Shown piece after piece: positions 6,633 to 36,977 of a stretch of 37,823 nt of DNA. Both the position numbers and the translations under genes were made by a program. The notes below the pieces were generated by a model. The model had not been told where the DNA came from. It searched no databases and saw nothing but the letters and a program-made list of their open reading frames with translations. Source of the stretch: Patescibacteria group bacterium (lineage in GTDB: Bacteria; Patescibacteriota; Minisyncoccia; Phycocordibacterales; UBA9973). The stretch's first letter is position 1, and the number at the start of each line of letters is the position of its first letter. Where the stretch lies: NCBI GenBank assembly GCA_038061035.1, contig JBBUAC010000023.1, positions 1 to 37,823 on the forward strand, read 5' to 3'.

Positions 6633-7988
6633 ACAATATTATTTATAATAGTTCTCATAATTCTAACCACTGGTGTTTTGTGGTATTTTTATTTTAACAA
6701 ATCTACAGACACAATAAATACAAACACAAAAACTGAAGGAGAAAATTTTGTATCTAATTTTTTTAATTTTGGAAAAATAAAAACAAAAGAAGTGGAGGAT
6801 GATTCAACGCCGGTAACCGATATTTCAGAAGAAAACGAAGAAACAACAATAGATATTCAAGAAGGGAATTTGTTTAAGATCTCAAGTATGCCCGTCGCTG
6901 GTTTTACTGTTTTTATGAAAGAAAGATTTAAAGAAATTGCAAATCCAAAAGAAATAGAACAAAACAACTTGAAGGCCAACTTGGAGGTCTTGCCTCCAAG
7001 TGAAAAAAAGGTTACTCCGATAGCTCCACTCACTGAGTTTGTTCCTGCTTTGAGGTATGTAGATAAAGCTACTGGTAATATTTATCAGACTTTTACAGAC
7101 CAAATAAATGAGCGTAAATTTTCTAATATGGAAATAGAAGGTATTTATGAAGCTTATTTTGGCAATAATGGAAACACAGTGATATCGCGATATCTTAAAA
7201 GTTCACCTCTTTTAAGTGGAGAAACAATTATTACTTATTCTGGTTCATTACCAAAAGAAATATTAGGAAATGATTCTGTAGTTGAAAATAATATAAGTGG
7301 ATCTTTTTTACCTGAAAATATAATAGATATGAGTATTTCTCCTAACACAACAAAAATGTTTTATTTATTTAATTGGAAAGAGGGCGTGGTTGGCACAACA
7401 GCTTTCTCTAATGGAGATAATAAGAAACAAATTTTTGATTCTAAATATACAGAGTGGCTCACACAATGGCCAAATGAAAATACAATTACAATTACCACAA
7501 AATCTGCGTCTTTTGTACCAGGATTTATGTATATAATTAATCCAAACAATTCGTCTATTGGTTTAAAAAGAATATTAGGTGGAATAAGGGGGCTGACAAC
7601 ACTTACAAGTCCAAATGGAAAGTTAGTTTTATATAGCAATGACACTGTTTCTTTAAATATCTACGATATAGAAACGGGAGAAGCTCAAACCTTGGGTGTA
7701 AAAAGTTTACCTGAAAAATGTGTTTGGGGAATATCTAGTGATGTTATTTATTGTGCTGTGCCTAAATTGATTGATAATTCTTTTTCATATCCAGATTCTT
7801 GGTATCGCGGGGAAGTGTCTTTTTCAGATGATATTTGGAGAATTGATGTCTCACAAGGAAATGCTAAAATAATATTTAATTCAGAAGAAGAAATAGATGG
7901 AGTTAGACTTATGTTAGACCAAAATGAAGACTTTTTATTTTTTATAAATAAAAAAGATTCTTATCTTTGGGGACTAACGTTGGAATAA
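6618..7988 (+). CDS. Membrane-anchored protein of unknown function (N-terminal TM, possibly a beta-propeller-like extracellular part)
   Basis: 456-aa ORF with TM segment ILFIIVLIILTTGVLWYFYF. I recognise no catalytic motif. Confidence 0.55.
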   Translation: MSKRNTILFIIVLIILTTGVLWYFYFNKSTDTINTNTKTEGENFVSNFFNFGKIKTKEVEDDSTPVTDISEENEETTIDIQEGNLFKISSMPVAGFTVFMKERFKEIANPKEIEQNNLKANLEVLPPSEKKVTPIAPLTEFVPALRYVDKATGNIYQTFTDQINERKFSNMEIEGIYEAYFGNNGNTVISRYLKSSPLLSGETIITYSGSLPKEILGNDSVVENNISGSFLPENIIDMSISPNTTKMFYLFNWKEGVVGTTAFSNGDNKKQIFDSKYTEWLTQWPNENTITITTKSASFVPGFMYIINPNNSSIGLKRILGGIRGLTTLTSPNGKLVLYSNDTVSLNIYDIETGEAQTLGVKSLPEKCVWGISSDVIYCAVPKLIDNSFSYPDSWYRGEVSFSDDIWRIDVSQGNAKIIFNSEEEIDGVRLMLDQNEDFLFFINKKDSYLWGLTLE

Positions 7989-8053
7989 TTACAAATTTTC
8001 AATTACGAATTACGAATTTAAATTCATAATTCGTAATTCGTAATTCGTAATTT
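7987..8053. terminator. ATTACGA-heptad palindromic hairpin (family copy 1), a bidirectional terminator between convergent genes
   Basis: ATTACGAATTACGAATTT|AAATTCATAATTCGTAAT is a near-perfect palindrome centred at 8020/8021. Extra AATTCGT units follow, then TTTTT. Confidence 0.7.
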
Positions 8054-8578
8054 TTAATTGTTTCCTATGTATTTAATTATTACCCTACGAGAACGACCGT
8101 ATCCTTCGGATTCGGTTTTTAAATCTGTAGCATTAGAAAGAAATTCATGTACTATTCTCCGTTCGTAAGCCGGCATTGGGTCAATCTCTATATTTGATTT
8201 AAAATAACGAGCTCGTTCCGCCATCATATGCACTATTGCATGAACATTTTCTATTCTTTTTTTCTGAAAACCATTCATATCAATAATAATATTTACGTTT
8301 TCGAATGGGATTTTGTTGTCTGTATTGGGAATTAATTCACTATCTTTGTTTTTTGAAAATATTTTATTTTCTATCATTCTGCGAGCAATGTGATTTAATG
8401 CGAAAAGAGCTTCACCTTCACGATTTAAGAAAAAATGTGGTTCTTTTGTTGTGATTTCAAACCATGTTGTTTTTATTTGATTTTCTTTTTCATCTTCTTT
8501 TACAAGAATCTCATCAAAAACTGTTGTGGTTTTTTCAATTAATTCCTTTATTAAGTTTTCTATTTCTTGTTTTTGCAT
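8054..8578 (-). CDS. khpB: Jag/KhpB RNA-binding protein (KH + R3H domains)
   Basis: C-terminal R3H-type MPAYERRIVHEFLS...SEGYGRSRRVII. Position is directly downstream of yidC. Confidence 0.75.
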   Translation of the reverse strand: MQKQEIENLIKELIEKTTTVFDEILVKEDEKENQIKTTWFEITTKEPHFFLNREGEALFALNHIARRMIENKIFSKNKDSELIPNTDNKIPFENVNIIIDMNGFQKKRIENVHAIVHMMAERARYFKSNIEIDPMPAYERRIVHEFLSNATDLKTESEGYGRSRRVIIKYIGNN

Positions 8579-9987: not shown

Positions 9988-10024
9988 TAAGAATTACGAA
10001 TTAAAGTATAATTCGTAATTCTTA
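9988..10024. repeat. ATTACGA-heptad hairpin (family copy 3) between rpmH and rnpA, overlapping the rpmH stop codon
   Basis: Perfect 15-bp stem TAAGAATTACGAATT (9988-10002) / AATTCGTAATTCTTA (10010-10024) with a 7-nt loop. Confidence 0.8.
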
Positions 10025-13257: not shown

Positions 13258-15777
13258 TTAATTAAAAGAAACATTAAAAGTAGAAATAAATTCACTACGA
13301 TTATAAAGAGTATCGTAAGATATTATTTTAATTTCATTAGTGTTTTTTAAATTATCAAGCTCTCCTGGTGTAAAAGAGAAGTTTATTGGATTATTAGATG
13401 TTCCCACAAAAACATCATTTATAAAAATATCTATTTTTGAAAGTGAATACACACCACGACTCTCAATAAGTAATTCTATTTTTTGGTTTACTGGGTAAAT
13501 GTTTTCAATATTTGGTTCAACAATAGAAACAATAGGTTTATTGTAGTCTGTGTGTATATTGTCATAATCATTTGGTTTTTGAGACCATGTGGTGGTATTG
13601 TATCTTCCACTGTTTTGTGCCCACCAATTTTGTATAGGTATATCCCAATGACTAAATTGTGGATCATTCACGCCACCCTCTGGTGTGGGGTCTAATATAT
13701 TTTTTTTATCAACCCAGTATAAAATACTACGTACATTTGTTATTATTTTTTCCTGTCTAGTTTCAAGTGGTGTATTTTCTGTAGCTAATTTTCCTGATAT
13801 TTTGTCTATTATAAAACTTTCATTTCCTTGCCAACTACCTCTAAGAACAGGTTTTATTTTTTGTTTATCAACTTCTAGGTTTGGTTTTTCAAATTTTTCA
13901 TTTGGTAAATTTTTTAAAGCTTCTTTTATAAATTTATTCCAAATAGGACCAGCAACAGAGCCACCACCTTTTTTCATTGGTTTATTGTCATTGTTTCCAG
14001 CCCACACACCGATAGTAATAGATGATGTATATCCTATAGTCCAAGCATCTTTATTGTTATTTGTTGTTCCAGTTTTAACAGCAACATCATAACCAGAAAT
14101 TAATAATTGAGAATTTGCACCAAAAGTAGGAGTTCGGCTTTTATTGTCTGATAATATGTCTGAAATAGTTAATGCTGTATTTTTAGGTAAAATTTCTTTT
14201 TCATTTAAACTAAATTCTTCTAAAATTTTTCCTTCTGAATTTTCAACTTTCAAAATCCCAGTATATTTATTTCTAATACCATTGTTTGCAAAAACACCAT
14301 AAGCTGAAGTCATATCAAGTAAAGTAACTTCACCACCTCCAATAACAAGAGTTAAACCATACCTACTTACATTTGTTAATGTGCTAATACCCATACTCTC
14401 AGATGTTTTAAATGAATCAGAAAGTCCAGATAGATAAAATAATTTTACAGCAGGTATGTTGATTGATTGTGCTAATGCTTCACGAAGTGTCATAGGACCC
14501 CTGTGTTTTCCATCATAATTTTGTGGCATATAACAATTACTTTGACTATATCCAGGAAGTGCCTTTCCATAAGCGTTACAAGTCATTTGAAATTCTGTAG
14601 GCAGGTCAAACAGCACTGTGTCTGGTGTAAAGCCTTTGTTGAAGGCCGTAGCGTAAATAAAAGGCTTAAAAGAGGAGCCTGGTTGCCTTAGTGCTGTGGT
14701 TACATTATAATTTCCATCTATTTCTTTATCAAAATAATCTCTTGAACCTATCATTGTTAAAATCTGTCCTGTTTTTGGGTTTATTGCCACAACTGCAGCA
14801 TTTTTACCATTCATTGTTTTTTCATTTTCTAAAGCACCTTCTTTTGTAATTTTTTCTCCAATTTCTTGTAATGTGTAATCCAATGTTGTTGTTACTTTTA
14901 ACCCTCCTTTTTCAACTGTTTCAGCGCCATATTTTTCCTCAAGATAATCTTTTATAAAAAAAACAAAATGAGGAGCTTTTATTCCCTTAACTTCTTGTGG
15001 TACAAAAGGCACAATTTCATTTTTTGCTAATTCATATTCTTCTTTTGTTATAAAATTAAGTTCTTTCATTCTAAAAAGTATAAAATTCTTTCTTTCTTCT
15101 AATTTATCTATATTTTTTCCATAAGGAGAAAGAAAAGTTGGAGATTGTGGGATTGCCGCTAAATAAGCAGATTCAACTAAAGAAAGATTTTTTGCAGATT
15201 TATTAAAATATGTTTTAGATGCTTCTTCTATTCCATAAACAACACCACCATAAGGAACTTCATTTAAATATAATTCTAGAATTTTTTCTTTAGGTATAGA
15301 ATTGTCTATTTTTATCGCTAAAACCCACTCTTTTACTTTTCTTACTAATGTTTTTTTGGAATTAAGTAATGTATTTTTTACTAATTGTTGTGTAATAGTA
15401 GAACCACCTTGTGTTTTTCCTATACTGAAAAAATTAGATAAAACAGCACGAACTATTGACCTTATTCTTATTCCTTGGTGATTATAAAAATTAGAATCTT
15501 CTACTGCAACTGTTGCGTTTTTAATATTTACCCCCATATCTATAAATGGAATATTTGTTCTTTTTACATCTTGGTGAATATCATAAAGCAATATCTCACC
15601 AGTACGATCATATATTTTAGTAGAATTTACAACCTTTCTATTGTCAAATGAATTAAAATCTGGAATCTTAAAAGAAGAAACCCAAATAACACCTATTCCA
15701 AACACAAGTATAAAAACACTTGCTCCAAATAAAAATATATTTTTGAAAAACCTCATTTTTTTTGTACCTTTTTTCAT
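13258..15777 (-). CDS. Class A penicillin-binding protein (glycosyltransferase GT51 + transpeptidase)
   Basis: GT51 motifs EDSNFYNHQGI and GGSTITQQ. Transpeptidase motifs GSSFKP (SxxK) and KTGTT. I prefer the start at 15777 (MKKGTKKMRFF) because TGGTATAAT lies 7 nt upstream of it. The longest ORF reaches 15813. Confidence 0.85.
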   Translation of the reverse strand: MKKGTKKMRFFKNIFLFGASVFILVFGIGVIWVSSFKIPDFNSFDNRKVVNSTKIYDRTGEILLYDIHQDVKRTNIPFIDMGVNIKNATVAVEDSNFYNHQGIRIRSIVRAVLSNFFSIGKTQGGSTITQQLVKNTLLNSKKTLVRKVKEWVLAIKIDNSIPKEKILELYLNEVPYGGVVYGIEEASKTYFNKSAKNLSLVESAYLAAIPQSPTFLSPYGKNIDKLEERKNFILFRMKELNFITKEEYELAKNEIVPFVPQEVKGIKAPHFVFFIKDYLEEKYGAETVEKGGLKVTTTLDYTLQEIGEKITKEGALENEKTMNGKNAAVVAINPKTGQILTMIGSRDYFDKEIDGNYNVTTALRQPGSSFKPFIYATAFNKGFTPDTVLFDLPTEFQMTCNAYGKALPGYSQSNCYMPQNYDGKHRGPMTLREALAQSINIPAVKLFYLSGLSDSFKTSESMGISTLTNVSRYGLTLVIGGGEVTLLDMTSAYGVFANNGIRNKYTGILKVENSEGKILEEFSLNEKEILPKNTALTISDILSDNKSRTPTFGANSQLLISGYDVAVKTGTTNNNKDAWTIGYTSSITIGVWAGNNDNKPMKKGGGSVAGPIWNKFIKEALKNLPNEKFEKPNLEVDKQKIKPVLRGSWQGNESFIIDKISGKLATENTPLETRQEKIITNVRSILYWVDKKNILDPTPEGGVNDPQFSHWDIPIQNWWAQNSGRYNTTTWSQKPNDYDNIHTDYNKPIVSIVEPNIENIYPVNQKIELLIESRGVYSLSKIDIFINDVFVGTSNNPINFSFTPGELDNLKNTNEIKIISYDTLYNRSEFISTFNVSFN

Positions 15778-17813: not shown

Positions 17814-17833
17814 AATAAGAATTATAAATTAAA

Positions 17834-17877
17834 AATTACGAATTACGAATTTAATTTTTAATTCGTAATTGATAATT
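17834..17877. repeat. ATTACGA-heptad hairpin (family copy 4) between yebC and ruvC
   Basis: Left arm AATTACGAATTACGAATT (17834-17851). Right arm AATTCGTAATTGATAATT (17860-17877), with the outer half degenerate. Confidence 0.65.
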
Positions 17878-17889
17878 ACTAATTTGTTT

Positions 17890-18426
17890 TTATTCCGCAT
17901 TAGTAAATACATCTTGCACATCATCGTTGTTTTCTAAGTCATCTACTAGTTTTTCGAGCAATACTAATTCTTCATCAGTCGGGGAGGTGGTTGTTTGTGG
18001 TATCCACACAAGTCCTTCAGGTGATATTTCTTTTTGAAAAGCCCAAACTACGGATCCTATACCAGCCAAGGCTGTACCATTTTCAACTAATATATGTTTT
18101 ACATCTTGAGCAGTTCTGTTTTTATTGTCTGTAAGAGTTTCTATTATTACACCCACTCCTCCTGGCCCATAGGCTTCATACATTATATTTTCCATACTTA
18201 CATTAGAATATGTTGCTTTTTTCACCGCTCTTTCAATAATCTCTTTCGGCATATTTACTTTTTTTGCTTTTTCTATAGCACTACGAAGTCCTGGAGAATC
18301 TTTACCACCTGAGAGCCTAGCTTCCACAGATATATATTTTACTAATTTAGAAAAAATCTTACTTTTTTTAGCATCAGTAATTCCTTTTTTATGTTTTATT
18401 TGCGACCAACGATTATGACCAGACAT
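17890..18426 (-). CDS. yebC: YebC/PmpR family DNA-binding regulator (short form)
   Basis: MSGHNRWSQIKHKKG...NRT motif. ATG at 18426 is preferred over the upstream GTG at 18447. Confidence 0.85.
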   Translation of the reverse strand: MSGHNRWSQIKHKKGITDAKKSKIFSKLVKYISVEARLSGGKDSPGLRSAIEKAKKVNMPKEIIERAVKKATYSNVSMENIMYEAYGPGGVGVIIETLTDNKNRTAQDVKHILVENGTALAGIGSVVWAFQKEISPEGLVWIPQTTTSPTDEELVLLEKLVDDLENNDDVQDVFTNAE

Positions 18427-18742: not shown

Positions 18743-19387
18743 ATGCAACCTAATAAAGATTTTCAACCCGTATGCACAGGAATACTTTTTAGTAGAGAAA
18801 TAGATAATAAAGATTTACTTGATGGTCTTGTGGATTTATCAAACAGAGGTTTTTTGACTATTTCTGATGAAAGTAATGAAGGTAACTAAAATAAAGTTGT
18901 AAGAGTTAAAGTAATTAGAAATATAAATTATTATGAAGCTGATAGAAATCTTGATCGAATTTTACTTGAATTGTTTTTAGGGGGTGATAAATCTGTATTT
19001 CTCGGAAAAGAGTTTAGTTTTAATGAAAGAATTAAATATAATCGTAGAAATAAAAAACATTACAAAAAACTTCATAAAGAAGCATTACATCAATTGGTTC
19101 TTCGGGGATATTTAAATATAGATTTACCCTTACCACTTAACACACCTTATTTTGGGGATGTGATTATGGGTATTTTTTTTATAGGTTTATTACTAATAGT
19201 TTTTGGTATAGGTATGTCTATCTTATTAGAAGATACCTTTTATATAATATTACTATTTCCTGGTTTTGTATTATCTTTAATAAGTACTATTTTTATTTAT
19301 TTAGGTACCAAAACAAATTATCCCTTAACTCAAAAAGGTCAAGAATTTATTAATGAGCTTAAAAATAAAAATATAAACAGTGCCTAG
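18743..19387 (+). pseudogene. Remnant of a DUF2207-like membrane protein gene: C-terminal half only, interrupted by an in-frame TAA
   Basis: The ATG at 18743 and the ORF at 18971-19387 are in the same frame, separated by TAA at 18887-18889. The joined translation ...DLLDGLVDLSNRGFLTISDESNEGN*NKVVRVKV...ILLELFLGG... followed by two TM segments fits the DUF2207 C-terminal pattern. Confidence 0.5.
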
Positions 19388-19417
19388 ACAGCGGCTTAGG
19401 CGCTGTGAATTTTTTAT
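19388..19417 (+). terminator. GC-rich hairpin terminator
   Basis: ACAGCG-GCTTAGG-CGCTGT followed by GAATTTTTTATTT. Confidence 0.65.
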
Positions 19418-20533
19418 TTAAGTGTTTAATATATCTGTTATGTTTTTTGAAGTTATCAAAGTGACAGGAGTATCTGGATATGCATTTTTCCAGGCACGGG
19501 TTTTGATTGAAGTTTCACTCCACTTACATTCAAAAGCTTCTAATTTTTCATATGTTTCTTCTACTAAATCAATCTCACTGCCATCTTTGGTTCGCCAAAA
19601 ATATGGACGAGTATGGTTACCTGATTTTTGATATTGTTTTATTCTTTCACTTATAAAAAAGTTTTCAAACAAAGACCCCTTATCATGTCTTTTGTCTAAA
19701 GAATTAAAATTATCAAGAAGAGCATTTTTTATTCCAGTATCATAAAAGAATATTTTTTCAAATCTAGTAACTTCATTACGTTTGTTTTTAGAAAGTGGCG
19801 GAAGTCTAAATATTATAAATGCTTGTTCTAATATTTTTATATATTGCATAATTGTTTGTCTGCTAACTTCCAATTTTTGAGCTATCTCATTATACGAAAC
19901 TTGGTTACCTGATTGTAAAGCAAGTAATCTAACTAATTTTTCTAAAATAATTGGCTTTCTAACTGTATCTATTTTTAAAATATCTCTAAAAAGATAATCA
20001 TTTGCAATAATTTTTAAATCAAAAGAGGGGTTTGTTGAAGAGATGATTCCAGGATACATTCCATACAATATTCTTTGTTCTAAAAGTCTCTTAGATTCCA
20101 ATTCACCAACAGTGTTTGAGTATTCTTGATATGAAATTGGATAAAGCATAAATGGTATATTCCTACCAGTTAAAGGTTCTAAAATTTTATTTGCCAACTC
20201 AAAAGAAGAAGAACCTGTAGCTATTATTTTTATTTCTGGATAAGTGTCGTGAAGAAGTTTTAAAGAAAGACCGATATTTTCCACTCTTTGGGCTTCATCA
20301 AGTACTACAAAAGTAGCATTTTTTATAAAAGCTTTCATTGCAGAAGAGGTTTTATTTGAAAAAGCTTCACGAATATCAGGTTCATCACACGAAAGGTAAA
20401 GACCATTGTGTTCTTTGATAATTTCTTTTACAAGTGTTGTTTTGCCAACTTGTCTAGCTCCATAGAGTATGGTAATTCTCGGGTCATTTAAAGATTCAAT
20501 TATTTTATTTTTTAACCATCTTTTTATAAGCAT
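19418..20533 (-). CDS. AAA+ ATPase, AAA_14 + DUF4143 (COG1373-like), paralog 3
   Basis: Walker A LYGARQVGKTTL, Walker B FVVLDEAQ, ATGSSS motif. TATAAT (20541-20546 on the plus strand as ATTATA) lies 7 nt upstream of the ATG. Confidence 0.85.
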   Translation of the reverse strand: MLIKRWLKNKIIESLNDPRITILYGARQVGKTTLVKEIIKEHNGLYLSCDEPDIREAFSNKTSSAMKAFIKNATFVVLDEAQRVENIGLSLKLLHDTYPEIKIIATGSSSFELANKILEPLTGRNIPFMLYPISYQEYSNTVGELESKRLLEQRILYGMYPGIISSTNPSFDLKIIANDYLFRDILKIDTVRKPIILEKLVRLLALQSGNQVSYNEIAQKLEVSRQTIMQYIKILEQAFIIFRLPPLSKNKRNEVTRFEKIFFYDTGIKNALLDNFNSLDKRHDKGSLFENFFISERIKQYQKSGNHTRPYFWRTKDGSEIDLVEETYEKLEAFECKWSETSIKTRAWKNAYPDTPVTLITSKNITDILNT

Positions 20534-20624: not shown

Positions 20625-20702
20625 TTAATCTTTTTCAATTCCTAAATGTTCATAGGCTTTATTTGTAGCAATGCGTTCGCGGGCGGTGAGTTCGGGAAGC
20701 GG
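20625..20702 (-). pseudogene. Orphan fragment encoding a RuvB C-terminus
   Basis: The minus strand translates to PLPELTARERIATNKAYEHLGIEKD*. Compare the intact RuvB end TPRGRMATQKAYEHLGFDLPEN*. Nucleotide similarity to 21331-21400 is roughly 75% by eye. Confidence 0.7.
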
Positions 20703-20704
20703 GG

Positions 20705-20959
20705 TTATTGGTCGGTGTATTGATGAAGAACTGAGGTCACAAGTGTCTGATATGGTATACCTTTTTCTACTGCGCGGACTTTAAGCTTCGCAAGGTCACG
20801 CAAAGATAGGCGGATATTGATATTTTTGGTTTTGTCGAGTGTGGATTTAGCAATTGACTGGAATCTTTTTAATTCACTTTTTGGCCTAGTAATCATTTTG
20901 TCATTTTCAATCGCGCTTAATATTTCTTCTTCTTCTTTTGTTAGTTCATAGTATTTCAT
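20705..20959 (-). CDS. brnA: BrnA family antitoxin
   Basis: C-terminal INIRLSLRDLAKLKVRAVEKGIPYQTLVTSVLHQY. Confidence 0.8.
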   Translation of the reverse strand: MKYYELTKEEEEILSAIENDKMITRPKSELKRFQSIAKSTLDKTKNINIRLSLRDLAKLKVRAVEKGIPYQTLVTSVLHQYTDQ

Positions 20960-20960
20960 A

Positions 20961-21245
20961 TTATTTTTTCTTTTTATTAATAATAAATTTTTTCGTCATT
21001 TTTCTGCTTGGGATAATTGTTTTCAAAAATATTTTTTCGTCGTCTTCTACAAAAGGAACAATATAAGCGTATTCTCTTATCTCGACAATAAGGACGCTTT
21101 GTGAAGGATATCTTGTCTTGTTTGGATGATCAGATATCTCAATCGTACTACCATTTTGGATTGCTAGGACAACTTCTTCAAATCCTACATTTCGTTCTGC
21201 TTTGAGTTTATCATTTTTTTCAATATTCCAATCAAAATACTTCAT
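20961..21245 (-). CDS. brnT: BrnT family (DUF497/COG2929) toxin
   Basis: YFDWNIEKNDKLKAERNVGFEEVV N-terminal signature. The toxin precedes the antitoxin with a 1-nt gap. TATACT lies 6 nt upstream of the ATG. Confidence 0.7.
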   Translation of the reverse strand: MKYFDWNIEKNDKLKAERNVGFEEVVLAIQNGSTIEISDHPNKTRYPSQSVLIVEIREYAYIVPFVEDDEKIFLKTIIPSRKMTKKFIINKKKK

Positions 21246-22426: not shown

Positions 22427-22581
22427 AGAGAAGGCATTAATCTCTAAGCAATCAGCCATCGGTTATATATATTTGCGTAGGACGCTCTGGTTTTTTTTAA
22501 AATACTGGGTCTATCCTTCAAAAATTTATTACTTTCTGGGCTTAGCCCTAAAAGGATTGTTTAGAGATTAATGCTTTTTTT
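22427..22581 (+). ncRNA. Candidate structured small RNA of about 150 nt, class unknown
   Basis: TTGCTT/TATAAT-like promoter, with the -10 at 22415-22420. A 20-bp closing helix pairs 22434-22453 with 22555-22574 (one G-U pair). T7 follows immediately. There is no downstream plus-strand gene. Confidence 0.4.
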
Positions 22582-22613
22582 GTGCCTCTACGGCACATCC
22601 GCCGAAGAGGCGG
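22581..22613. repeat. Two adjacent GC-rich mini-hairpins
   Basis: TGTGCC-TCTAC-GGCACA (22581-22597) and CCGCC-GAAGA-GGCGG (22599-22613). The string CGCCGAAG..GGCGGAAC recurs at 25584-25598 in tsaE. Confidence 0.65.
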
Positions 22614-22617
22614 AACT

Positions 22618-23277
22618 TCATTTTATTTTATATTTTTCATAATTTAAACAAAAATTTTTACCACCTTTTTTAAAATCATTATAAGCTTCATCTATGATTT
22701 CCAGCACTTCGTTTGAATTTTTTACATAAAAAGCCAACTTATAATCATCTTCTTTTAAATATTCTTTAGCCAAAAGTTCATCTTTTATCCAACGAAGAAG
22801 TCCTTCCCACTCATCTCCTATTAGTATTATAGGAATATCACATATATGATGCACCTGGACTAATTGCCAAGTATAAAATAACTCAAGAAGAGTTCCAAGT
22901 CCGCCGGGCTCTACAATAACTGCATTTGATAAAAGCATAAACTCATCTAATCTTCGGGAAAAAATATTAAGTTTTTTTCTGTACTCAACGCCTTCATTGA
23001 ATTTTTGGTTCCAAGGTAAGTTAATTCCTATTCCTACAGAATATGCATTACTTCCACTTATGGTGGTGCCTATGACATGCCCTTCATTTGCCGCCTTCAT
23101 TAGTCCTGGTCCGCCACCTGTCAAGACATCTATTCCTCTTTCTCCAAGCATAGCGGCCAAATGCTTCACTCTCCTATAAGTGTCATCTTCTTCTTCTATT
23201 TTTGAACTTCCAAATATAGCTACTCTAAAGTGATTATTTTTATTTTTTTTAAATTCTTTAAAATTTTCTGGATCCAT
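22618..23277 (-). CDS. LOG family (TIGR00730) nucleotide phosphoribohydrolase-like protein
   Basis: GGGPGLMKAANEG and PGGLGTLLELF motifs. Confidence 0.85.
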   Translation of the reverse strand: MDPENFKEFKKNKNNHFRVAIFGSSKIEEEDDTYRRVKHLAAMLGERGIDVLTGGGPGLMKAANEGHVIGTTISGSNAYSVGIGINLPWNQKFNEGVEYRKKLNIFSRRLDEFMLLSNAVIVEPGGLGTLLELFYTWQLVQVHHICDIPIILIGDEWEGLLRWIKDELLAKEYLKEDDYKLAFYVKNSNEVLEIIDEAYNDFKKGGKNFCLNYEKYKIK

Positions 23278-25136: not shown

Positions 25137-25643
25137 ATGGGAAAGATAATGCAAAAAGTTTCAAAAAACACTAAAGACACAGAAAAAATTGCGCAAGATT
25201 TTTTAAAACACCTTATGTCAAAGGGAACCTTTGACACTGCTTGTGTGGTCGGCTTGTCGGGGGATTTAGGAACAGGGAAGACTACATTTACTCAATTTAT
25301 TGCTAAAAATTTAGGAATAAAAACAAAAGTAAAAAGTCCGACATTTGTGATAATGAAGCGGTACACCCTCACCCCAACCCTCTCCCGAAGGGAGAGGGGG
25401 CATAGATACAAAAATCTCTTTCACATCGACGCCTACAGATTAAAAAATGAAAAAGAATTATTACACCTTGGTTGGGAAGAAATTGTTTCAAATCCAGAAA
25501 ATTTAATTTTTATAGAATGGCCAGAAAATATTAAAAAAGCTATGCCAAAAAAATATCACAAAGTATTTATAAAACACTTGCCTCGCCGAAGCGGAACGAA
25601 GGCGGGCACAAAAGAAGGACACAGAAAGTTTAGAATAAAATAA
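25137..25643 (+). CDS. tsaE: tRNA t6A37 biosynthesis ATPase TsaE, with an internal insertion and a C-terminal extension
   Basis: GLSGDLGTGKTTFTQ, SPTF, HIDAYRL motifs. The insert TLTPTLSRRERGHR and the tail LPRRSGTKAGTKEGHRKFRIK coincide with GC-rich hairpins. Confidence 0.85.
   Translation: MGKIMQKVSKNTKDTEKIAQDFLKHLMSKGTFDTACVVGLSGDLGTGKTTFTQFIAKNLGIKTKVKSPTFVIMKRYTLTPTLSRRERGHRYKNLFHIDAYRLKNEKELLHLGWEEIVSNPENLIFIEWPENIKKAMPKKYHKVFIKHLPRRSGTKAGTKEGHRKFRIK
25378..25398. repeat. GC-rich perfect hairpin inside the tsaE coding sequence
   Basis: CCCTCTCCC-GAA-GGGAGAGGG (9-bp stem) within a GC-rich patch at about 25363-25402. Confidence 0.85.
25579..25608. repeat. GC-rich hairpin in the 3' end of tsaE
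   Basis: TGCC(T)CGCC ... GGCGGGCA is 8 bp with one bulge. It shares CGCCGAAG.CGGAAC with 22600-22616. Confidence 0.6.
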
Positions 25644-30550: not shown

Positions 30551-33436
30551 ATGTTTCTTTTGTTAAAAAAGACATTGAAATTTGTAATTATAATTATTAT
30601 AGTCATTTTCACCTTTTCTGGATCAATTTTTATATCAGCATTTTTTGCACAGTTTATTATCAATATGCAAAATGTGGATATTACACTCGGTTCACTTGAG
30701 AGTTCAGATACTGAATTCACAGTTTCTTTTGCTCCATCTTCTGGTGTAAATAATGAGTCATATCGTATCACTGCATTTTCTAATTGTAATCAAAATGAAT
30801 ATGATGATTTTGGAAATTGTATTGATCTTGTTCCTAATTTATGCCCATATCTTTCTCTCCAGCCAAAGAACGAAGAGATAACAGAAATTGGTTTTACTCA
30901 AAACTTATCTGATTTTCAAGCCACGGGTCAATTAAATAATCCTGATGATGAAATTGATATATGGAATCTCTCAATTAAATCCCCGTGTTTTGAAGGAGAA
31001 TGCCCCACCGATTATGATGAATTTCAAAATGGTGCTCCGTTGCCACAAATACTTAAAAACCAAACCTTTAAATGCGTTCTTTCTGTAGAAACAAGTGACA
31101 TTCCCGAACTTGTTAAAAATTATTTAGAAAAAAATATTATTTATGCAGATGATTTTATAAATTCTCTTGAGGTGTCGGCAATATTTACAGGAGAACTTCC
31201 AGGTTGTATCACTGATTGTTTTTCAAATGTTTTATTTTTGCCTGGGATGATGGGGTCAAAACTTTATGAAGCAGGACTTGATTGTGATGATGTATTTGTA
31301 GGAAATGAATGTGGAGATAAAACTATATGGGTTTCTATATTTGATAATTTACAAAAAAAGCTTTCGCTTGATGCACTAGGAAAAAGTATTAACAACCTTT
31401 TTACTAAAAATGATACCCAATATGACGGGGGAAATGAAATGGGTATTATAGACGAGATAGGTGTTTTTAATATTTATAAATCTTTTATTTCTGATTTAAA
31501 GAAGTGGAAAGAAGAGGAAAAAATAATAGAGGACTATGCTTTTATTCCGTATGACTGGAGATTGTCGCTAGAAGATATTATTTCAAATGGAAAAGTTTTA
31601 GAAGAAAATCTTTCATATACAAATTCTCAAAATTTTGAAGAATCATTTATTTTAAAAAAATTAGAAGAACTTCAAAAAACTTCCAAATCAGGCAAGGTCA
31701 CTATTCTAGCTCACTCTAATGGTGGTTTAGTGACTAAAGCATTGATGCAAAAATTAAAAGATACAAACAATCCTCTCTATGAAAAAATAGACAAAATTAT
31801 TTTTGTAGCTGTGCCTCAAGTTGGAACACCAGAAGCATTTGTGAGTTTGCTTCATGGAGTAAAAGTTGGCAAGGGATTTGTAATGAATGCTGACATGGCT
31901 CGCAACTTGGCTGAAAATATGCCGACAATTTATAATTTACTTCCTTCAGAGAATTATTTTACCAATCTTCAAATTCCATTTACTTTAGATAAACTAATAT
32001 CGTTTCAAGATAAAGAAATATTTAAAAAAGAAATATCTAAATATGATTTAATGATAGATAATTATTCAGAACTTAAAGCATATATTTTAGGAAAAGAAGA
32101 AAGAGACAAACCATCATTTGAAGATACAAGGAATCCAAATATTGGTAACTCTTTTTTATATGATCAAGCACAAGCCGTGCATCAAATATTGGATAATTGG
32201 CAACCATCATCAGAAACTAAAGTTATACAAATAGCTGGTTGGGGAGAGGAAACTATAGCAAGCATAGAATACAAAGAATATATTACTAGAGAATGTAAGG
32301 ATGGTATTTGCGGACCAAGTTCAAAAATTTCTTATAAAATTAAAAAAGTCATTGACGGCGACGGAACTGTTGTTGTCCCCAGTACTCTTTTTATGTCTCC
32401 ATCAGAAAACATTGAGAGATGGTGGGTGGATTTGAAAGAAATTAATCGTGGTAAATTAAGAAAATATAATCATAAAGACATTTTAGAAATCCCAAACTTA
32501 AGAGATTTTATTAAATCTAAAACAAAAGATGAAGTTTTGTTTATTGATTCAGAAAATATTGTTTTAAACAATAATTTAAATCTTAAATCAAGTAAATCTC
32601 GTCTCCACTTTCAACTCCACTCACCGTTATACCTTGGAATAATTGATAATGAAGGAAGATATACAGGTATTGACCCAATTACAAAAGAAATAAAGGAAGA
32701 AATTCCAGATGTTACATATCAACAAATAGGCGAAGTACAATTTCTTTCTATTTCATATGGATTAGAATATACATTAAAACTTCAAGGTTATACTGAAGGT
32801 AGTTTTTCTTTAGATATAGACAAACAAGAAGGGAATGAAATAACAGAGTCTGCTTCATTTCAAGGTATTCCATCAGACTCTAATACTTTAGCTACTTTAG
32901 CAATAGATACAAATTTCAAAGTAGGAGATTCTGTATTAAATATTGATAATAATGGAGATAAAACAACTGACATTACTTTAATAGCTATATTAAATGGGAC
33001 AACATTATACGAAGAGTCAAAAGAATTATCATCTAAATCAATAATTTATTCTGGAAATTCCCAAGAAAATCCATCTGCGTCCGGAGCAGTAAATATATTT
33101 ATGATTGCACAAAATAATAAAACAGATAATATTGTGTATGAAGAAAATATAGAGCAAATAAAAAATCAAATAGAGAAAAAAGAAGAAGTTTCTGAAATAA
33201 ATATAGTAAATAATAAAATTAAAAAGAATAATTTTAAACCAAAGATAGAAGTTGCAAAAAATATAGAAGATAATTTAAAAACACCACAAAAAACAGAAGT
33301 AGAATCAAAAAATGAAGTTTTTCCACTTCAAGCTTCAGTGGTAGAATTTAACACAAATAATTCAGCAAAATTGCCAATAATTATTGTTTCTTTGTTTTTA
33401 GTCGGTATTATTATTTTTAAATTTATTAAGGTATAA
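30551..33436 (+). CDS. Large cell-surface protein with an LCAT/PGAP1-like alpha/beta-hydrolase (lipase/acyltransferase) domain
   Basis: N-terminal and C-terminal TM segments and a Cys-rich N-terminal region. FLPGMMGSKLYE, nucleophile elbow ILAHSNGGL, DGDGTVVVP, and a later NHKDIL as candidate His. Confidence 0.6.
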   Translation: MFLLLKKTLKFVIIIIIVIFTFSGSIFISAFFAQFIINMQNVDITLGSLESSDTEFTVSFAPSSGVNNESYRITAFSNCNQNEYDDFGNCIDLVPNLCPYLSLQPKNEEITEIGFTQNLSDFQATGQLNNPDDEIDIWNLSIKSPCFEGECPTDYDEFQNGAPLPQILKNQTFKCVLSVETSDIPELVKNYLEKNIIYADDFINSLEVSAIFTGELPGCITDCFSNVLFLPGMMGSKLYEAGLDCDDVFVGNECGDKTIWVSIFDNLQKKLSLDALGKSINNLFTKNDTQYDGGNEMGIIDEIGVFNIYKSFISDLKKWKEEEKIIEDYAFIPYDWRLSLEDIISNGKVLEENLSYTNSQNFEESFILKKLEELQKTSKSGKVTILAHSNGGLVTKALMQKLKDTNNPLYEKIDKIIFVAVPQVGTPEAFVSLLHGVKVGKGFVMNADMARNLAENMPTIYNLLPSENYFTNLQIPFTLDKLISFQDKEIFKKEISKYDLMIDNYSELKAYILGKEERDKPSFEDTRNPNIGNSFLYDQAQAVHQILDNWQPSSETKVIQIAGWGEETIASIEYKEYITRECKDGICGPSSKISYKIKKVIDGDGTVVVPSTLFMSPSENIERWWVDLKEINRGKLRKYNHKDILEIPNLRDFIKSKTKDEVLFIDSENIVLNNNLNLKSSKSRLHFQLHSPLYLGIIDNEGRYTGIDPITKEIKEEIPDVTYQQIGEVQFLSISYGLEYTLKLQGYTEGSFSLDIDKQEGNEITESASFQGIPSDSNTLATLAIDTNFKVGDSVLNIDNNGDKTTDITLIAILNGTTLYEESKELSSKSIIYSGNSQENPSASGAVNIFMIAQNNKTDNIVYEENIEQIKNQIEKKEEVSEINIVNNKIKKNNFKPKIEVAKNIEDNLKTPQKTEVESKNEVFPLQASVVEFNTNNSAKLPIIIVSLFLVGIIIFKFIKV

Positions 33437-33887: not shown

Positions 33888-36800
33888 ATGAAAGATTACT
33901 TACAAGAAATTCAAAAATATTTTTATGATGAAAACAGCTCTGAACATTCATATCGGACTTCTTTTGAAAATTATTTAAAAGAAATTTTTCCAAAAGAAAA
34001 AGGTTATTTTACACAACAAGACCAAAGAGCTATAAATGGAAATAAACCTGATTTTATTATATTTAAAAATAAAGTTCCCTTACTTTATATAGAAGTTAAA
34101 AAAGTTGGGGAAGATTTAGATAAAATTGAAAAATCTGATCAAGCTGATAGATACTTCGGTTACAGCAACTTGATAATTAGCGATTACGTTAATTTTAGGT
34201 TTTTTAGAAATGGGCAGAAATACAATGAAGAAATTTCTCTCGGAGATATAGATAAAAACGGAAGATATATAAAAATAAAAAATGAAAACTCTGATTATTT
34301 AATAAAAACAATTTTAGATTTTGTTTCTTCTAATAAAGAACCAATTAAGAGTGGAGTACATCTTGCAAAAATAATGGGAGGAATAGCAAAGCGTGTTAGG
34401 TCTAATGTATTAGAAATGCTTTTTTCTAAATCAGAGCGTTATATAGAATTGTTTAAAATAAGGGATGTTGTGAAAGAGAATTTGATTTCAAGTCTTGACG
34501 ATAATTCTTTTGCAGATATGTATGCGCAGACTTTAGTTTATGGTCTTTTTTCAGCTCGATATAATGATACAACACTTAATAATTTTTCCCGTATTGAAGC
34601 TCGGGAACTTATACCAAAAACAAATCCATTTTTAAGATCTTTCTTTGACCATATTGCAGGAAATACTTTTCCAGAAAGACTACGATTTATTGTTGATGAA
34701 TTATGTGAAGTTTTTACTCATGCCCATGTGCATAATCTTATGCATGAGTATTTTAAAAAAGAAAGTTTGTTTGGAGAAGTATATGAAAGTCCTGATCCAG
34801 TTATTCATTTTTATGAAGATTTCTTGCGTGAATATGATGTAAAAAAGAAAATGGAAATGGGAGTTTTCTACACACCTCGTCCAGTAGTACAATTTATTGT
34901 TCGCGCGGTGGATAGTATTTTAAAAAGTGAATTTAATCTTTTAAAAGGTTTGGCTGATAAAACCAAAATACAAATAGAAAGAAAAGAAATAGATAAAAAG
35001 GGAAAAACAATTAAGATTCAAAAAGAATATCACAAAGTTCAAATTCTTGATGTGGCTACAGGCACAGGAACATTCTTAAATGAAGTCATTAAACATATTT
35101 ATAAAGATTTTATTGGTCAAGAGGGTCATTGGCCATCATATGTAGAAGATAATCTTTTGCCAAGATTGCATGGTTTTGAGCTGATGATGGCTTCTTATAC
35201 TATTGCTCATTTGAAATTAGGTATGACACTTCAGGACACAAAGGCTGGGGAATTAAAAACTCGTTTGGGGGTATATCTTACAAATACACTTGAAGCTTCG
35301 GTGGACTATGCAAATCAAGGTACTTTATTTGGTTTAATGGATAGTATCGCTCAAGAAAGTAAAAGTGCTTCAAAGATAAAATCAGAATACCCCATTATGT
35401 GTGTAATTGGGAATCCACCATATAGTGGTGTTTCTCAAAATAAAATTTATACCGACAATAATGTTTATAAAGTAGAGATAGGAGGCAAACAAAAACTTCA
35501 AGAAAGAAAACATTGGTTGGATGATGATTATGTTAAATTTATTCGCTTTGCTGAAAGTCTAATAGAGAAAAATGAGGAGGGAATTATTGGAATGATTACT
35601 GCTCATGGATATATTGATAACCCTACATTTCGGGGAATGCGATGGCACTTGAGAAACACTTTTGACAAAATTTACATTCTAGATTTACATGGAAATAGTA
35701 ATAAGGGGGAAATAAGCCCTGATGGATCAAAAGACGGTAATATTTTTGATATTAAAACCGGTGTAGCTATAATTTTAGGAATTAAAAATTCTAACATTAA
35801 AAATAAAAAATTGGCACAAGTTTTAAAAGCAGATTTCTATGGAATTCGTGCAGAAAAATTTAAAAAATTGGATATTTCAAATATTGATAAAATAGATTGG
35901 ACAAAACTACCAGAAAATACAGATTTATGGGTTCTTGAAGGAGTGGGTAAAACTGAATATAAAAAAGGGTTTTCTGTCGCTGAGCTGTTTCCCAAAAATA
36001 CAACAGGAATTGTAACTGGAATAGATAAATTATCCATTTTTTACACAAAGGATGAATTAGAAAAAATAACGAAATCTATCCTAAATTCAAATAATCCCTA
36101 TGTAGAATTTAATATTAAGGATGGAAGAAAATATAAAAAAGAAGAAAGATTAAAAGAATTAAAAGAAGCATCAGAAGATAAACCGACTTTAATTTCTTAT
36201 AGGTCTTTTGATGATAGGTGGATGTATTATACAAAAGGATCAGAAGTTTGGATTAATTCTCCAAGATTTGAGATAATGCAAAATTTTATAAATAAAGATA
36301 ACTTAGGATTAATTGTTTGTAAGCAAGTAAAAAGTGGAGATTCATGGCAACATTTAAGTATCTCTAAAAATATAATTGAATCGTCTTTCATTTCTAATAA
36401 AACTGGAGAAATAAATTCTAGTTTACCTCTGTATTTATATACAGAACAAGGAGAAAAGATTCCAAACTTAAACAAAGAAATTTGCGAGAAAATAAATGAG
36501 GAAGCAGGAGAAACAACGCCAGAAAATATTCTGGATTATATATACGCAGTTTTACATTCACCTAAATATCGAGAAACCTATAAAGAATTTTTGAAAATAG
36601 ATTTTCCTCGTGTGCCATATCCGACTGACAAAAAAGAATTTGAAAGATTAATTAAACTTGGAGAAAAATTAAGAAATCTGCATTTAATGATTGACCCAGA
36701 TTGTGAAAGATTTATTACAAAATATTCTGTAGCGGGTGGTAATTTTGTGGAAAAAGTAAAATACGAAAATGGTAATGTTTATATAAATACTACTCAAAAT

Positions 36801-36977
36801 TTTAAAGGTGTTCCAGAAATTGTTTGGAATTTTTATATTGGAGGTTATCAACCTACACAAAAATATCTAAAAGATAGAAAAGGAAAACAACTAAATAGTG
36901 ATGAAATAGAACATTATCAGAAAATAATTAAAGTTTTATTTGAGACTAATAAGATAATGAAGGAGATAGATAAATAA
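33888..36977 (+). CDS. Single-chain Type IIG/IIL (MmeI-like) restriction-modification enzyme
   Basis: N-terminal PD-ExK candidate KPDFIIF...YIEVKK. MTase motif I ILDVATGTGTFL, motif IV GNPPYSG. The C-terminal target-recognition/Type ISP-like region includes YIYAVLHSPKYRETYKEFLKIDFPRVPYP. Confidence 0.8.
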   Translation: MKDYLQEIQKYFYDENSSEHSYRTSFENYLKEIFPKEKGYFTQQDQRAINGNKPDFIIFKNKVPLLYIEVKKVGEDLDKIEKSDQADRYFGYSNLIISDYVNFRFFRNGQKYNEEISLGDIDKNGRYIKIKNENSDYLIKTILDFVSSNKEPIKSGVHLAKIMGGIAKRVRSNVLEMLFSKSERYIELFKIRDVVKENLISSLDDNSFADMYAQTLVYGLFSARYNDTTLNNFSRIEARELIPKTNPFLRSFFDHIAGNTFPERLRFIVDELCEVFTHAHVHNLMHEYFKKESLFGEVYESPDPVIHFYEDFLREYDVKKKMEMGVFYTPRPVVQFIVRAVDSILKSEFNLLKGLADKTKIQIERKEIDKKGKTIKIQKEYHKVQILDVATGTGTFLNEVIKHIYKDFIGQEGHWPSYVEDNLLPRLHGFELMMASYTIAHLKLGMTLQDTKAGELKTRLGVYLTNTLEASVDYANQGTLFGLMDSIAQESKSASKIKSEYPIMCVIGNPPYSGVSQNKIYTDNNVYKVEIGGKQKLQERKHWLDDDYVKFIRFAESLIEKNEEGIIGMITAHGYIDNPTFRGMRWHLRNTFDKIYILDLHGNSNKGEISPDGSKDGNIFDIKTGVAIILGIKNSNIKNKKLAQVLKADFYGIRAEKFKKLDISNIDKIDWTKLPENTDLWVLEGVGKTEYKKGFSVAELFPKNTTGIVTGIDKLSIFYTKDELEKITKSILNSNNPYVEFNIKDGRKYKKEERLKELKEASEDKPTLISYRSFDDRWMYYTKGSEVWINSPRFEIMQNFINKDNLGLIVCKQVKSGDSWQHLSISKNIIESSFISNKTGEINSSLPLYLYTEQGEKIPNLNKEICEKINEEAGETTPENILDYIYAVLHSPKYRETYKEFLKIDFPRVPYPTDKKEFERLIKLGEKLRNLHLMIDPDCERFITKYSVAGGNFVEKVKYENGNVYINTTQNFKGVPEIVWNFYIGGYQPTQKYLKDRKGKQLNSDEIEHYQKIIKVLFETNKIMKEIDK

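Follow-up and report, generated by a model that had tools for sequence, protein, structure and literature searches.

The tsaE gene in a 37,823-nucleotide stretch of Patescibacteria DNA (contig JBBUAC010000023.1 of assembly GCA_038061035.1; this whole 37.8-kb stretch is called the window below) contains two GC-rich hairpin segments, element 1 and element 2, that lie within the coding sequence and preserve its reading frame. Probably these are two insertions of short palindromic repeat DNA, in frame and independent of each other, each in a beta-hairpin turn of the protein; they would be translated and tolerated as leftovers of hairpin DNA that was selfish or arose by mutation, and would not be adaptive features of the protein. 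This explanation draws on the insertion status of both segments, the family identity of element 1, the preserved frame, the loop positions, the turnover of the segments among relatives, the dispersal of sister families through coding and non-coding DNA and at least one recombinant allele. The novel part is a known, named motif in an unreported setting together with a tsaE hot spot for hairpin families; in-frame palindromic insertion itself is already known from Rickettsia. The features of the gene are listed here by position and strand.

25137-25643, plus strand: tsaE coding sequence, 168 amino acids counted from the first ATG (open reading frame list)
25366-25398, minus strand: element 1, a 33-nucleotide motif of the BoxC/PIT/TMECO type, assigned by pattern fit and similarity to Escherichia coli; as a minus-strand oligonucleotide, CCCTCTCCCTTCGGGAGAGGGTTGGGGTGAGGGT
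25378-25398, plus strand: hairpin part of element 1, a perfect 9-bp stem (CCCTCTCCC / GGGAGAGGG) with the loop GAA
25578-25607, plus strand: element 2, a 30-nucleotide in-frame insert, TTGCCTCGCCGAAGCGGAACGAAGGCGGGC, encoding LPRRSGTKAG, assigned by sequence, fold and alignment

Insertion status and position in TsaE

The window has a GC content of 28.6%, in keeping with the A+T-rich surroundings given in a preliminary description of this DNA, and comes from a Nomurabacteria-like member of the Patescibacteria; the closest relatives of its genes were in Candidatus Nomurabacteria and other Patescibacteria. The open reading frame (ORF) at 25137-25643 had been called tsaE from its letters, and Pfam confirmed this name (PF02367, E = 1.5e-32). 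A database protein 99% identical to the window TsaE (P0001) starts at the ATG at 25149 and has 164 amino acids. Homologues of TsaE numbered 4795, the nearest of them in Candidatus Nomurabacteria and other Patescibacteria, and the gene order pilB-like ATPase, tsaE, polA was common to the window and loci L004, L086 and L090. The matches listed in a genome-collection scan for tsaE relatives were all distant, with at most 52% identity. At least three other data sets (L001 from ENA; L002 and L003 from Logan) yielded the same tsaE, both inserts included, in independent assemblies, and L292 and L293 have it as well.

Forty-eight close TsaE proteins were aligned, as were 58 tsaE loci at the DNA level. 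Length varied at five places in these alignments: two near the N-terminus, a mid site (MKRY / KNLFH), a C site (I-x-H / TKEGHRKF) and the C-terminal end. The window inserts occupy two of the five, the mid site and the C site. At the mid site the window has TLTPTLSRRERG, whereas insert-free relatives have about seven residues such as LKHKNF; at this hairpin the window protein is about 8-11 residues longer than those relatives, in agreement with the approximately 11 extra residues noted earlier. At the C site the window has LPRRSGTKAG, where 26 of the 48 relatives have nothing. The segment that follows, TKEGHRKF(K/R)IK (TKEGHRKFRIK in the window), is kept in relatives and forms the last beta-strand of the structural model. 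The second GC hairpin had been said to underlie a C-terminal tail not expected in TsaE; the hairpin is present, but LPRRSGTKAG alone is extra and the rest of the tail is conserved.

The presence of inserts did not track overall similarity. Neither insert was found in P0007 (77% identical in the alignment), P0033, P0034 or P0043, whereas P0008 (L004) and P0017 (L090; 68% identical) had only a C-site hairpin and P0006 (L005; 75% identical) had only the mid-site element. Fitch counting on a neighbour-joining tree required no fewer than 19 state changes for the mid site and no fewer than 13 for the C site, which are rough figures from 144 alignment columns and a weak tree. Their presence in some close relatives and absence from others identifies both segments, by sequence comparison, as lineage-specific in-frame insertions and not ancestral TsaE sequence, as the preliminary description had proposed.

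A structural model of the window TsaE was built with AlphaFold2 on the TsaE alignment (mean predicted local distance difference test score (pLDDT), 84.8; predicted template modelling score (pTM), 0.82). Insert 1 (residues 78-92) is predicted to lie between strands 73-77 and 93-98, with a mean pLDDT of 59 for residues 81-90. Insert 2 (residues 148-157) is predicted to lie between strands 141-147 and 163-167, with a pLDDT below 50 for residues 155-159. The model places both inserts in loops, a point that the preliminary description had listed for checking, and specifically in low-confidence turns between beta-strands. Solved TsaE structures are without insert 1, with an alignment gap of 9 residues in 9zw5 and of 11 in 5np9; the solved-structure alignments end at or before window residue 148, short of insert 2.

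The reading frame was preserved throughout, as the earlier account of in-frame landing implied. An insert-free query was searched with tblastn against 86 loci collected independently of gene calls, and each tsaE-matching locus gave a single high-scoring segment pair in one frame. No tsaE insert at these loci broke the frame or held a stop codon. Translational bypass and splicing of the inserts were rejected on the single frame at each tsaE-matching locus and on the absence of stop codons from the inserts. The elements are 33 and 30 nucleotides long, both multiples of three, and a TMECO unit with two 3-nucleotide loops is likewise 33 nucleotides long. Read directly from the sequence, element 1 is stop-free in five of six frames and element 2 in all six. 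Because GC-rich hairpins can hardly hold TAA, TAG or TGA, a length divisible by three is nearly the sole condition for their survival within an ORF. The inserts are stop-free, a multiple of three in length and set in exposed loops, and would therefore simply be translated (as TLTPTLSRRER and LPRRSGTKAG) and tolerated; they are probably close to neutral for TsaE.

Identity of the two elements and of related hairpins

Element 1, read on the minus strand from 25398 to 25366, consists of CCCTCTCCC, TTC, GGGAGAGGG, TTG and GGGTGAGGG, followed by T. On the coding strand it supplies the codons for (T)LTPTLSRRER(G), in frame within tsaE codons 77-88. The perfect 9-bp GC stem, CCCTCTCCC-GAA-GGGAGAGGG at 25378-25398, is present exactly as first described, and the third block, CCCTCACCC at 25366-25374, is unpaired in the simple fold. 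The fold energy of this hairpin was -19.8 kcal/mol, and 7 of 200 dinucleotide shuffles folded equally well, because C-runs and G-runs pair in any order. The corresponding values for element 2 were -13.2 kcal/mol and, again, 7 of 200. Since shuffled stretches fold nearly as well for each hairpin, local folding energy alone is weak evidence, and the comparative data carry the argument.

A regular-expression scan showed element 1 to be an exact, base-for-base fit to the published pattern CCCTCNCCC N3-6 GGGNGAGGG N3 GGGNGAGGG[GTC-], which defines TMECO (Holder et al., 2015, PMC4666352), a repeat earlier named BoxC and PIT. Repeats of this kind are 33-37 nucleotides long, have the order C-block, G-block, G-block and occur in E. 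coli and many other bacteria (PMC4666352, PMC5100583); 3610 were counted in 262 proteobacterial genomes (PMC4666352). A blastn search with positions 25362-25404 found matches in 5403 of 5426 complete E. coli genomes, at a median of 16 places per genome, and the best E. coli places were 90-92% identical to element 1 over 38-40 nucleotides. A scan of viral and prophage contigs for the left arm, CTCACCCYAACCCTCTCC, matched at least 120 contigs, with contig GC contents of 36% to 72% among the matches listed. Nearly all of these listed matches had the layout of the window, namely the 18-mer, a short loop and then GGGAGAGGG. Rfam had no family covering element 1 or element 2. By its sequence, element 1 is a member of BoxC/PIT/TMECO, a named, cross-phylum motif found here in an unreported setting.

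Oligonucleotides of TMECO adopt a hairpin, an intrastrand triplex or a G-quadruplex in vitro (PMC4666352, PMC5100583), and the minus-strand G-runs of element 1 (GGG-AGA-GGG-TT-GGGG-TGA-GGG) fit the G-quadruplex (G4) motif by inspection. The repeat has been associated with local genome instability (PMC4666352), with no tie to transposons, phages or plasmids and no demonstrated function (PMC4666352, PMC5100583). In E. coli its copies are always intergenic, flanking ORFs with none inside one (PMC4666352; Kaplan et al., 2016, PMC5100583). Element 1 departs from this habit, being inside tsaE and read in frame, but the habit belongs to one species and is not part of the sequence definition. The host is also different, a member of the Patescibacteria with 28.6% GC and one copy in 37.8 kb, not a proteobacterium or cyanobacterium. 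BoxC/PIT/TMECO has been known for thirty years with no assigned function or mechanism of spread and, as reported, never inside genes in E. coli. Its in-frame presence in a gene of an essential pathway, in an ultra-small, AT-rich and distantly related bacterium, would mean that the intergenic habit is not intrinsic, that such repeats can settle in protein loops and that the BoxC element, or the process making it, reaches far beyond the Proteobacteria.

Element 1 was also present in relatives, in various states. In locus L005 (protein P0006) it has the position and reading frame that it has in the window; over the first 25 bases the two copies agree completely (25/25), and the genes are 75% identical overall. 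The C-block in L005 is the G variant, CCCTCGCCC with GGGAGAGGG, which is the 'mismatch' type commonest in E. coli, and a second three-block unit adjoins it in the opposite orientation, as judged by eye. Inverted pairs of three-block units have been described for E. coli (PMC4666352, PMC5100583). L005 has a further copy at an N-terminal tsaE site in another frame (SPQPLS..WRG as against TLTPTLS). In P0003 (L294; 74% identical in the alignment), element 1 has decayed toward AT and lost its pairing (TLAPIRTRWERRNK). The first 120 or so nucleotides of the P0002 gene are strongly diverged from the window and the remainder is virtually identical (L292 486-983 compared with window 25149-25643), a pattern that indicates intragenic tsaE recombination between related strains. 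Taken together, these alleles suggest that element 1 entered tsaE before the L005, P0003 and P0002 lineages split, or passed between them by recombination, and that it is intact in some and decaying in others.

Element 2 forms a hairpin at 25579-25608 (TGCCtCGCC...GGCGGGCA), in which 25579-25587 pairs with 25601-25608 through eight pairs and one bulged T. Segments of the element 2 type, 30-33 nucleotides long, were found at the same tsaE codon position in L090/L219 and L088/L212 and, in part, in L218. A blastn-short search of 2.16 Mb of related loci found no copy outside that tsaE position, and there was none in the scanned viral contigs. The C-site hairpins of relatives formed a graded series with the common outer stem YTRCC...GGYA.

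L215: a perfect 16-nucleotide palindrome, CTGCCTGCGCAGGCAG
L086: CCTGCCT-accggca-AGGCAGG
L004: an interior of 18 nucleotides
Window type: the interior CGCCGAAGCGGAACGAAGGCG

Two histories could give such a series: insertions that struck the palindrome tip again and again, or extension at the site itself through template switching. At one position of the element 2 stem the window has a G-C pair, L090 and L218 have G-U, and L088 has A-U. Compared with L090, element 2 had 94% nucleotide identity and 10 of 11 third positions the same, against 74% identity and 55% of third positions for the rest of the gene. This excess suggests a DNA or RNA constraint, or a common descent more recent than that of the whole gene. 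The element 2 of P0003 is divergent, decayed toward AT and without pairing.

The preliminary description had joined element 2 and an intergenic hairpin pair at 22581-22613 into one dispersed family on the basis of a common string. The string exists (CGCCGAA and GCGGAAC, with a 3-nucleotide gap between them), but mononucleotide-shuffled pairs reached the same local alignment score in about 3% of cases, as did random hairpin pairs of equal composition (also about 3%), before correction for some 10 comparable GC islands. The sequence at 22581-22613 consists of two adjacent GC hairpins (mapped to 22582-22614) just 3' of a LOG-family gene (22618-23277, minus strand), with no U-run after them on the strand of that gene. 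The pair is kept at the syntenic place in L004, where one stem pair has changed from C-G to U-A (compensatory) and another is broken, and neither blastn-short over the 2.16 Mb nor pattern scans found further copies of these hairpins. A single family was rejected, given the chance-level similarity, the synteny of the pair in L004 and the restriction of element 2 to its tsaE position; 22581-22613 looks like ordinary gene-end hairpins unrelated to element 2. The broader idea of dispersal holds in another form, in that element 1 belongs to the widely dispersed BoxC/PIT/TMECO and other hairpin families of relatives occur in both coding and intergenic DNA.

Hairpin inserts extended to other sites and genes of relatives, and nearly all inserts at the tsaE hot spots were hairpins. 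Twenty-four of the 36 unique tsaE inserts of at least six residues folded better than 95% of same-length segments of their own locus. The ORFs of related AT-rich loci (0.5 Mb in all) contained 42 GC-rich perfect hairpins, whereas block shuffles gave about 5. With tsaE set aside, 22 such hairpins (stem of at least 8 bp) were counted in 48 AT-rich loci within ORFs of 150 or more amino acids, and the codon-shuffle mean was 5.8 (range 2-10). Their density was still mainly intergenic, at 53 per 100 kb compared with 9 per 100 kb of coding sequence. The in-frame hairpins of relatives were found in tsaE, polA, uvrB and a P-type ATPase gene. The insert families of tsaE were the following.

BoxC-like three-block motifs, in all three frames (TLTPTLS, PHPASP..RGRG and SPQPSP..RRGG)
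The LPLPRGSAQRARG family, CTCCCCCTgccaAGGGGGAGtgcccaaagggcGAGGGGGT
The KNFLADKTKPVPAGENF family, whose core was also found in polA and at an intergenic site
The VGHLGSLVSN family, with VGH copies downstream of the L088 polA and inside a P-type ATPase gene
AT-rich perfect palindromes, with a 19-bp stem in L255 and a 20-bp stem in L278

Several families were traced through more than one gene or contig. The KNFLAD core was found in the L090 polA, at an L090 intergenic site and in L217, and the inverted repeats flanking KNFLAD copies differed from copy to copy. Copies of the KNFLADKTKPVPAGENF hairpin family lay at L090 12155-12202 and 16160-16202, L223 313-355, L227 760-800 and L217 182-223. Each had a conserved GC-rich core of about 42 nucleotides and its own inverted repeat of 13-20 bp lengthening the stem, as if the core had entered the centre of a palindrome or one flank had been copied in inverse orientation. 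The LPRGSAQRARG family was present in tsaE and, in another frame, in the L281 polA. Within 9.7 kb, L088 carried one hairpin family three times, twice between genes and once in frame in polA; the segment L088 4313-4355, on a Nomurabacteria contig, was identical at 43 of 43 positions to L007 3026-3068, which lies in a non-coding hairpin cluster of a different metagenome-assembled genome with 45% GC. Three consecutive hairpins were found in the uvrB of L086. Viral-contig scans for the KNFLAD core and the LPRGSAQRARG core found none. The elements of relatives reach about 90 nucleotides, compared with 30-33 in the window. A direct duplication at the protein level (VSKN ... ISNG), possibly a target-site duplication, brackets an N-terminal tsaE insert, TRPVRDREGSQRVF, at L215 3190-3270, which also occurs in P0048 and P0063.

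These comparisons mark tsaE in these bacteria as a hot spot where numerous hairpin families have settled. With many families at two codon positions, it would offer a compact natural system for following the insertion, nesting and loss of short palindromes. Length variation in small proteins of Patescibacteria would partly stem from hairpin DNA and not from protein-level adaptation, which matters for annotation, alignments, phylogenies and structure prediction. We found no report of in-frame palindromic inserts in the candidate phyla radiation in a literature search with incomplete coverage of subscription journals.

Besides BoxC/PIT/TMECO, three known systems resemble the inserts in some respects. 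Rickettsia palindromic elements are in-frame palindromic repeats of about 150 bp in unrelated housekeeping genes, tolerated as extra peptide (PMC10969869). The earlier comparison with them was apt as a description of behaviour, since here too the frame is kept, the inserts lie in loops and many genes are affected in relatives (tsaE, polA, uvrB and the P-type ATPase gene). They differ in size, families and host: the Rickettsia elements form ten Rickettsia-specific families, each with a conserved peptide, whereas the window elements are 30-33 nucleotides long, the elements here are read in several frames and one of them is a cross-phylum motif. The likeness holds as an analogy of behaviour, not as membership. 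Yeast mitochondrial GC clusters such as GC42 have stems conserved above the synonymous rate, merging and shuffling of units, homologous recombination in their flanks and putative target-site duplications (PMC4478555). As GC-rich palindromes in a very AT-rich genome, they parallel the nested hairpins, the DNA-level conservation and the recombinant P0002 seen here; they belong to an organelle system, have no sequence relation to the inserts and differ in their putative target-site duplications, none of which was found for the window elements. Repetitive extragenic palindromes (REPs) and bacterial interspersed mosaic elements (BIMEs), mobilised by REP-associated tyrosine transposases (RAYTs), are also short (20-40 bp), GC-rich, imperfect palindromes with many dispersed copies. 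REPs are extragenic and most can be sorted into superfamilies with a GTAG or CGTC tag at one end (PMC3733652). By inspection, neither window element starts or ends with GTAG or CGTC, and both are intragenic. With regard to the features of miniature inverted-repeat transposable elements, the inverted repeats flanking KNFLAD vary by copy, direct repeats do not flank elements 1 and 2, and the L215 insert has its protein-level duplication.

Origin and persistence of the inserts

Under the insertion explanation, element 1 is a BoxC/PIT/TMECO copy and element 2 a plain GC hairpin from a nested-palindrome series at one tsaE codon position. The inserts would have arrived by copy-and-paste, with AT-rich sites that are quasi-palindromic or prone to hairpins as the targets, and homologous recombination would then have carried them from strain to strain. 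This is the most likely route, and we give it about an even chance. Without an insert, the mid site reads as an AT-rich quasi-palindrome (ATGTTAAAACAT and AAAATTTT are examples), and the copies of both elements in P0003, decayed toward AT and unpaired, support neutral decay after arrival.

Several results weigh against this explanation. The DNA of the retained elements has changed less than that of the gene around them (element 2 in the comparison with L090, element 1 in that with L005), and the G-C / G-U / A-U pair of element 2 hints at a nucleic-acid structure constraint or recent transfer and not at pure neutrality. The 37.8-kb window has one copy of element 1 and one of element 2, with no second copy of either inside it, and the strict BoxC pattern was found only in the window and L005 among the sampled Patescibacteria loci. 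The near-identical strains L001-L003 and L292 had no presence/absence polymorphism and thus no sign of recent mobility. No direct repeat flanks either element in the window. No target-site duplication, terminal repeat or transposase was identified, the search for a RAYT having consisted of Pfam scans of a few window ORFs.

A wider proposal is put forward tentatively, as somewhat less probable than its negation. Patescibacteria of the Nomurabacteria or Paceibacteria type might harbour diverse, undescribed, very short hairpin elements, canonical BoxC among them, that settle in frame at beta-turn hot spots of housekeeping genes, nest at hairpin tips and gain copy-specific inverted flanks. They would move by insertion that targets hairpins or by fold-back, with no transposase dedicated to them, and would be the counterpart in bacteria of the mitochondrial GC clusters.

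The conservation of the elements also bears on whether the hairpins are kept for a nucleic-acid structure role in the gene, with the peptide as a by-product. Such a role could be polymerase or ribosome pausing, mRNA stabilisation, a triplex or G-quadruplex switch of the template strand, or a recombination or replication signal. It would account for the high identity of element 2 to L090 at the nucleotide level (94% compared with 74%) and at third positions (10/11 compared with 55%) and for the 25/25 match of element 1 to L005, and it is consistent with the one covarying pair in element 2, with a C-site outer stem kept in many lineages while the interior varies, with the near-identity of the BoxC sequence across phyla and with the published formation of triplex, G4 and hairpin structures in vitro. 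However, many close relatives are without inserts, P0003 has lost the pairing of both elements and kept the gene, different and unrelated hairpins occupy the same sites, and the covarying pair is a single one from few sequences. In published in vivo tests that the triplex paper cites, PIT elements showed neither promoter nor terminator activity nor an effect on polymerase. We regard a retained structural role, which would be compatible with the insertion explanation, as unlikely. As to transcription termination, elements 1 and 2 do not have the GC hairpin with a U-run at a gene end that marks intrinsic terminators. A terminator scan found no plus-strand site in tsaE; its minus-strand sites (25601-25581 and 25592-25580, which overlap element 2, and 25237-25215) are all antisense inside the gene.

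The absence of element 2 copies outside tsaE, in the 2.16 Mb and in viral contigs alike, would fit an origin without any mobile element, in which template switching or fold-back synthesis at a short palindrome produced element 2 and the rest of the C-site series on the spot and lengthened them. Copying of this kind both creates inverted repeats and perfects them. The minimal form of the site is the perfect 16-nucleotide palindrome of L215, to which the other forms add interiors of up to 18 nucleotides within the same outer stem. The copy-specific inverted flanks of KNFLAD are what fold-back copying would yield, and the quasi-palindromic character of the empty mid site points in the same direction. 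Growth in place gives no account of element 1, with its 90% identity to a repeat known from other phyla, nor of identical family cores in different genes, and nothing nearby is an obvious template for the GC-rich interior of element 2. As the source of element 2 and its series it is quite unlikely.

TsaE acts in a complex that modifies tRNA (the t6A pathway). Inserts turn up repeatedly in the same two loops, and their peptides are basic and rich in Gly. These peptides could in principle be adaptive Arg/Gly-rich loops that aid the binding of TsaE to partners or tRNA, with palindromy incidental. The peptides of one relative are, however, wholly unlike those of another, and a single DNA element appears in several frames (TLTPTLS, SPQPLS, PHPASP); what recurs is the DNA palindrome, not the peptide. 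The same DNA families are also intergenic, model confidence is low for both loops and many relatives do without inserts, so that an adaptive origin is very improbable. An assembly or sequencing artefact, such as a chimera with E. coli-like DNA suggested by the 90% identity of element 1 to the E. coli repeat, has a negligible chance of being correct, given the same tsaE with both inserts in the independent assemblies L001, L002, L003, L292 and L293, the diverged versions in relatives and the frame kept by the inserts.

Other features of the window

Apart from the tsaE inserts, a gene-by-gene comparison of the window with L004 gave no further clear hairpin insert besides a 21-nucleotide GC-rich extra in a penicillin-binding-protein gene. 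This stretch (13670-13690; minus strand, DPTPEGGV) is extra relative to L004 only in an antisense-frame comparison. Its palindromic character is weak (a C-run, then a G-run), and it could be what remains of a decayed element. A perfect hairpin at 6980-7000, CTTGGAGG-tcttg-CCTCCAAG, lies in frame (ANLEVLPPSEK) in a 456-amino acid protein without a Pfam match and may be another in-frame hairpin insert.

AT-rich repeats of TTACGAA / AATTACG units with long inverted repeats were found at 7984-8062, 9988-10024 and 17817-17894, for example with perfect 16-nucleotide arms TAAGAATTACGAATTA / TAATTCGTAATTCTTA. These appear to be a separate dispersed family in the window. In the spacer upstream of ruvB, a 23-nucleotide block at 22551-22575, AAAGGATTGTTTAGAGATTA[AG]TG, is almost invariant in four syntenic loci and may be a regulatory site or a small RNA.

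The ORFs at 30551-33436 and 33888-36977 were considered as uvrB and uvrA, which Pfam ruled out: the former matched an LCAT-like hydrolase and the latter a Type ISP restriction-modification enzyme (Type_ISP_C, E = 2.4e-74). A BrnT-like toxin gene lies at 20961-21245, with a GC-rich island at 20665-20706 just downstream, possibly in the antitoxin partner. Terminator-like GC-rich hairpins lie at 1195-1220, between the genes at 99-1202 and 1247-2239, and at 19380-19405, between the convergent genes at 18971-19387 and 19418-20533.

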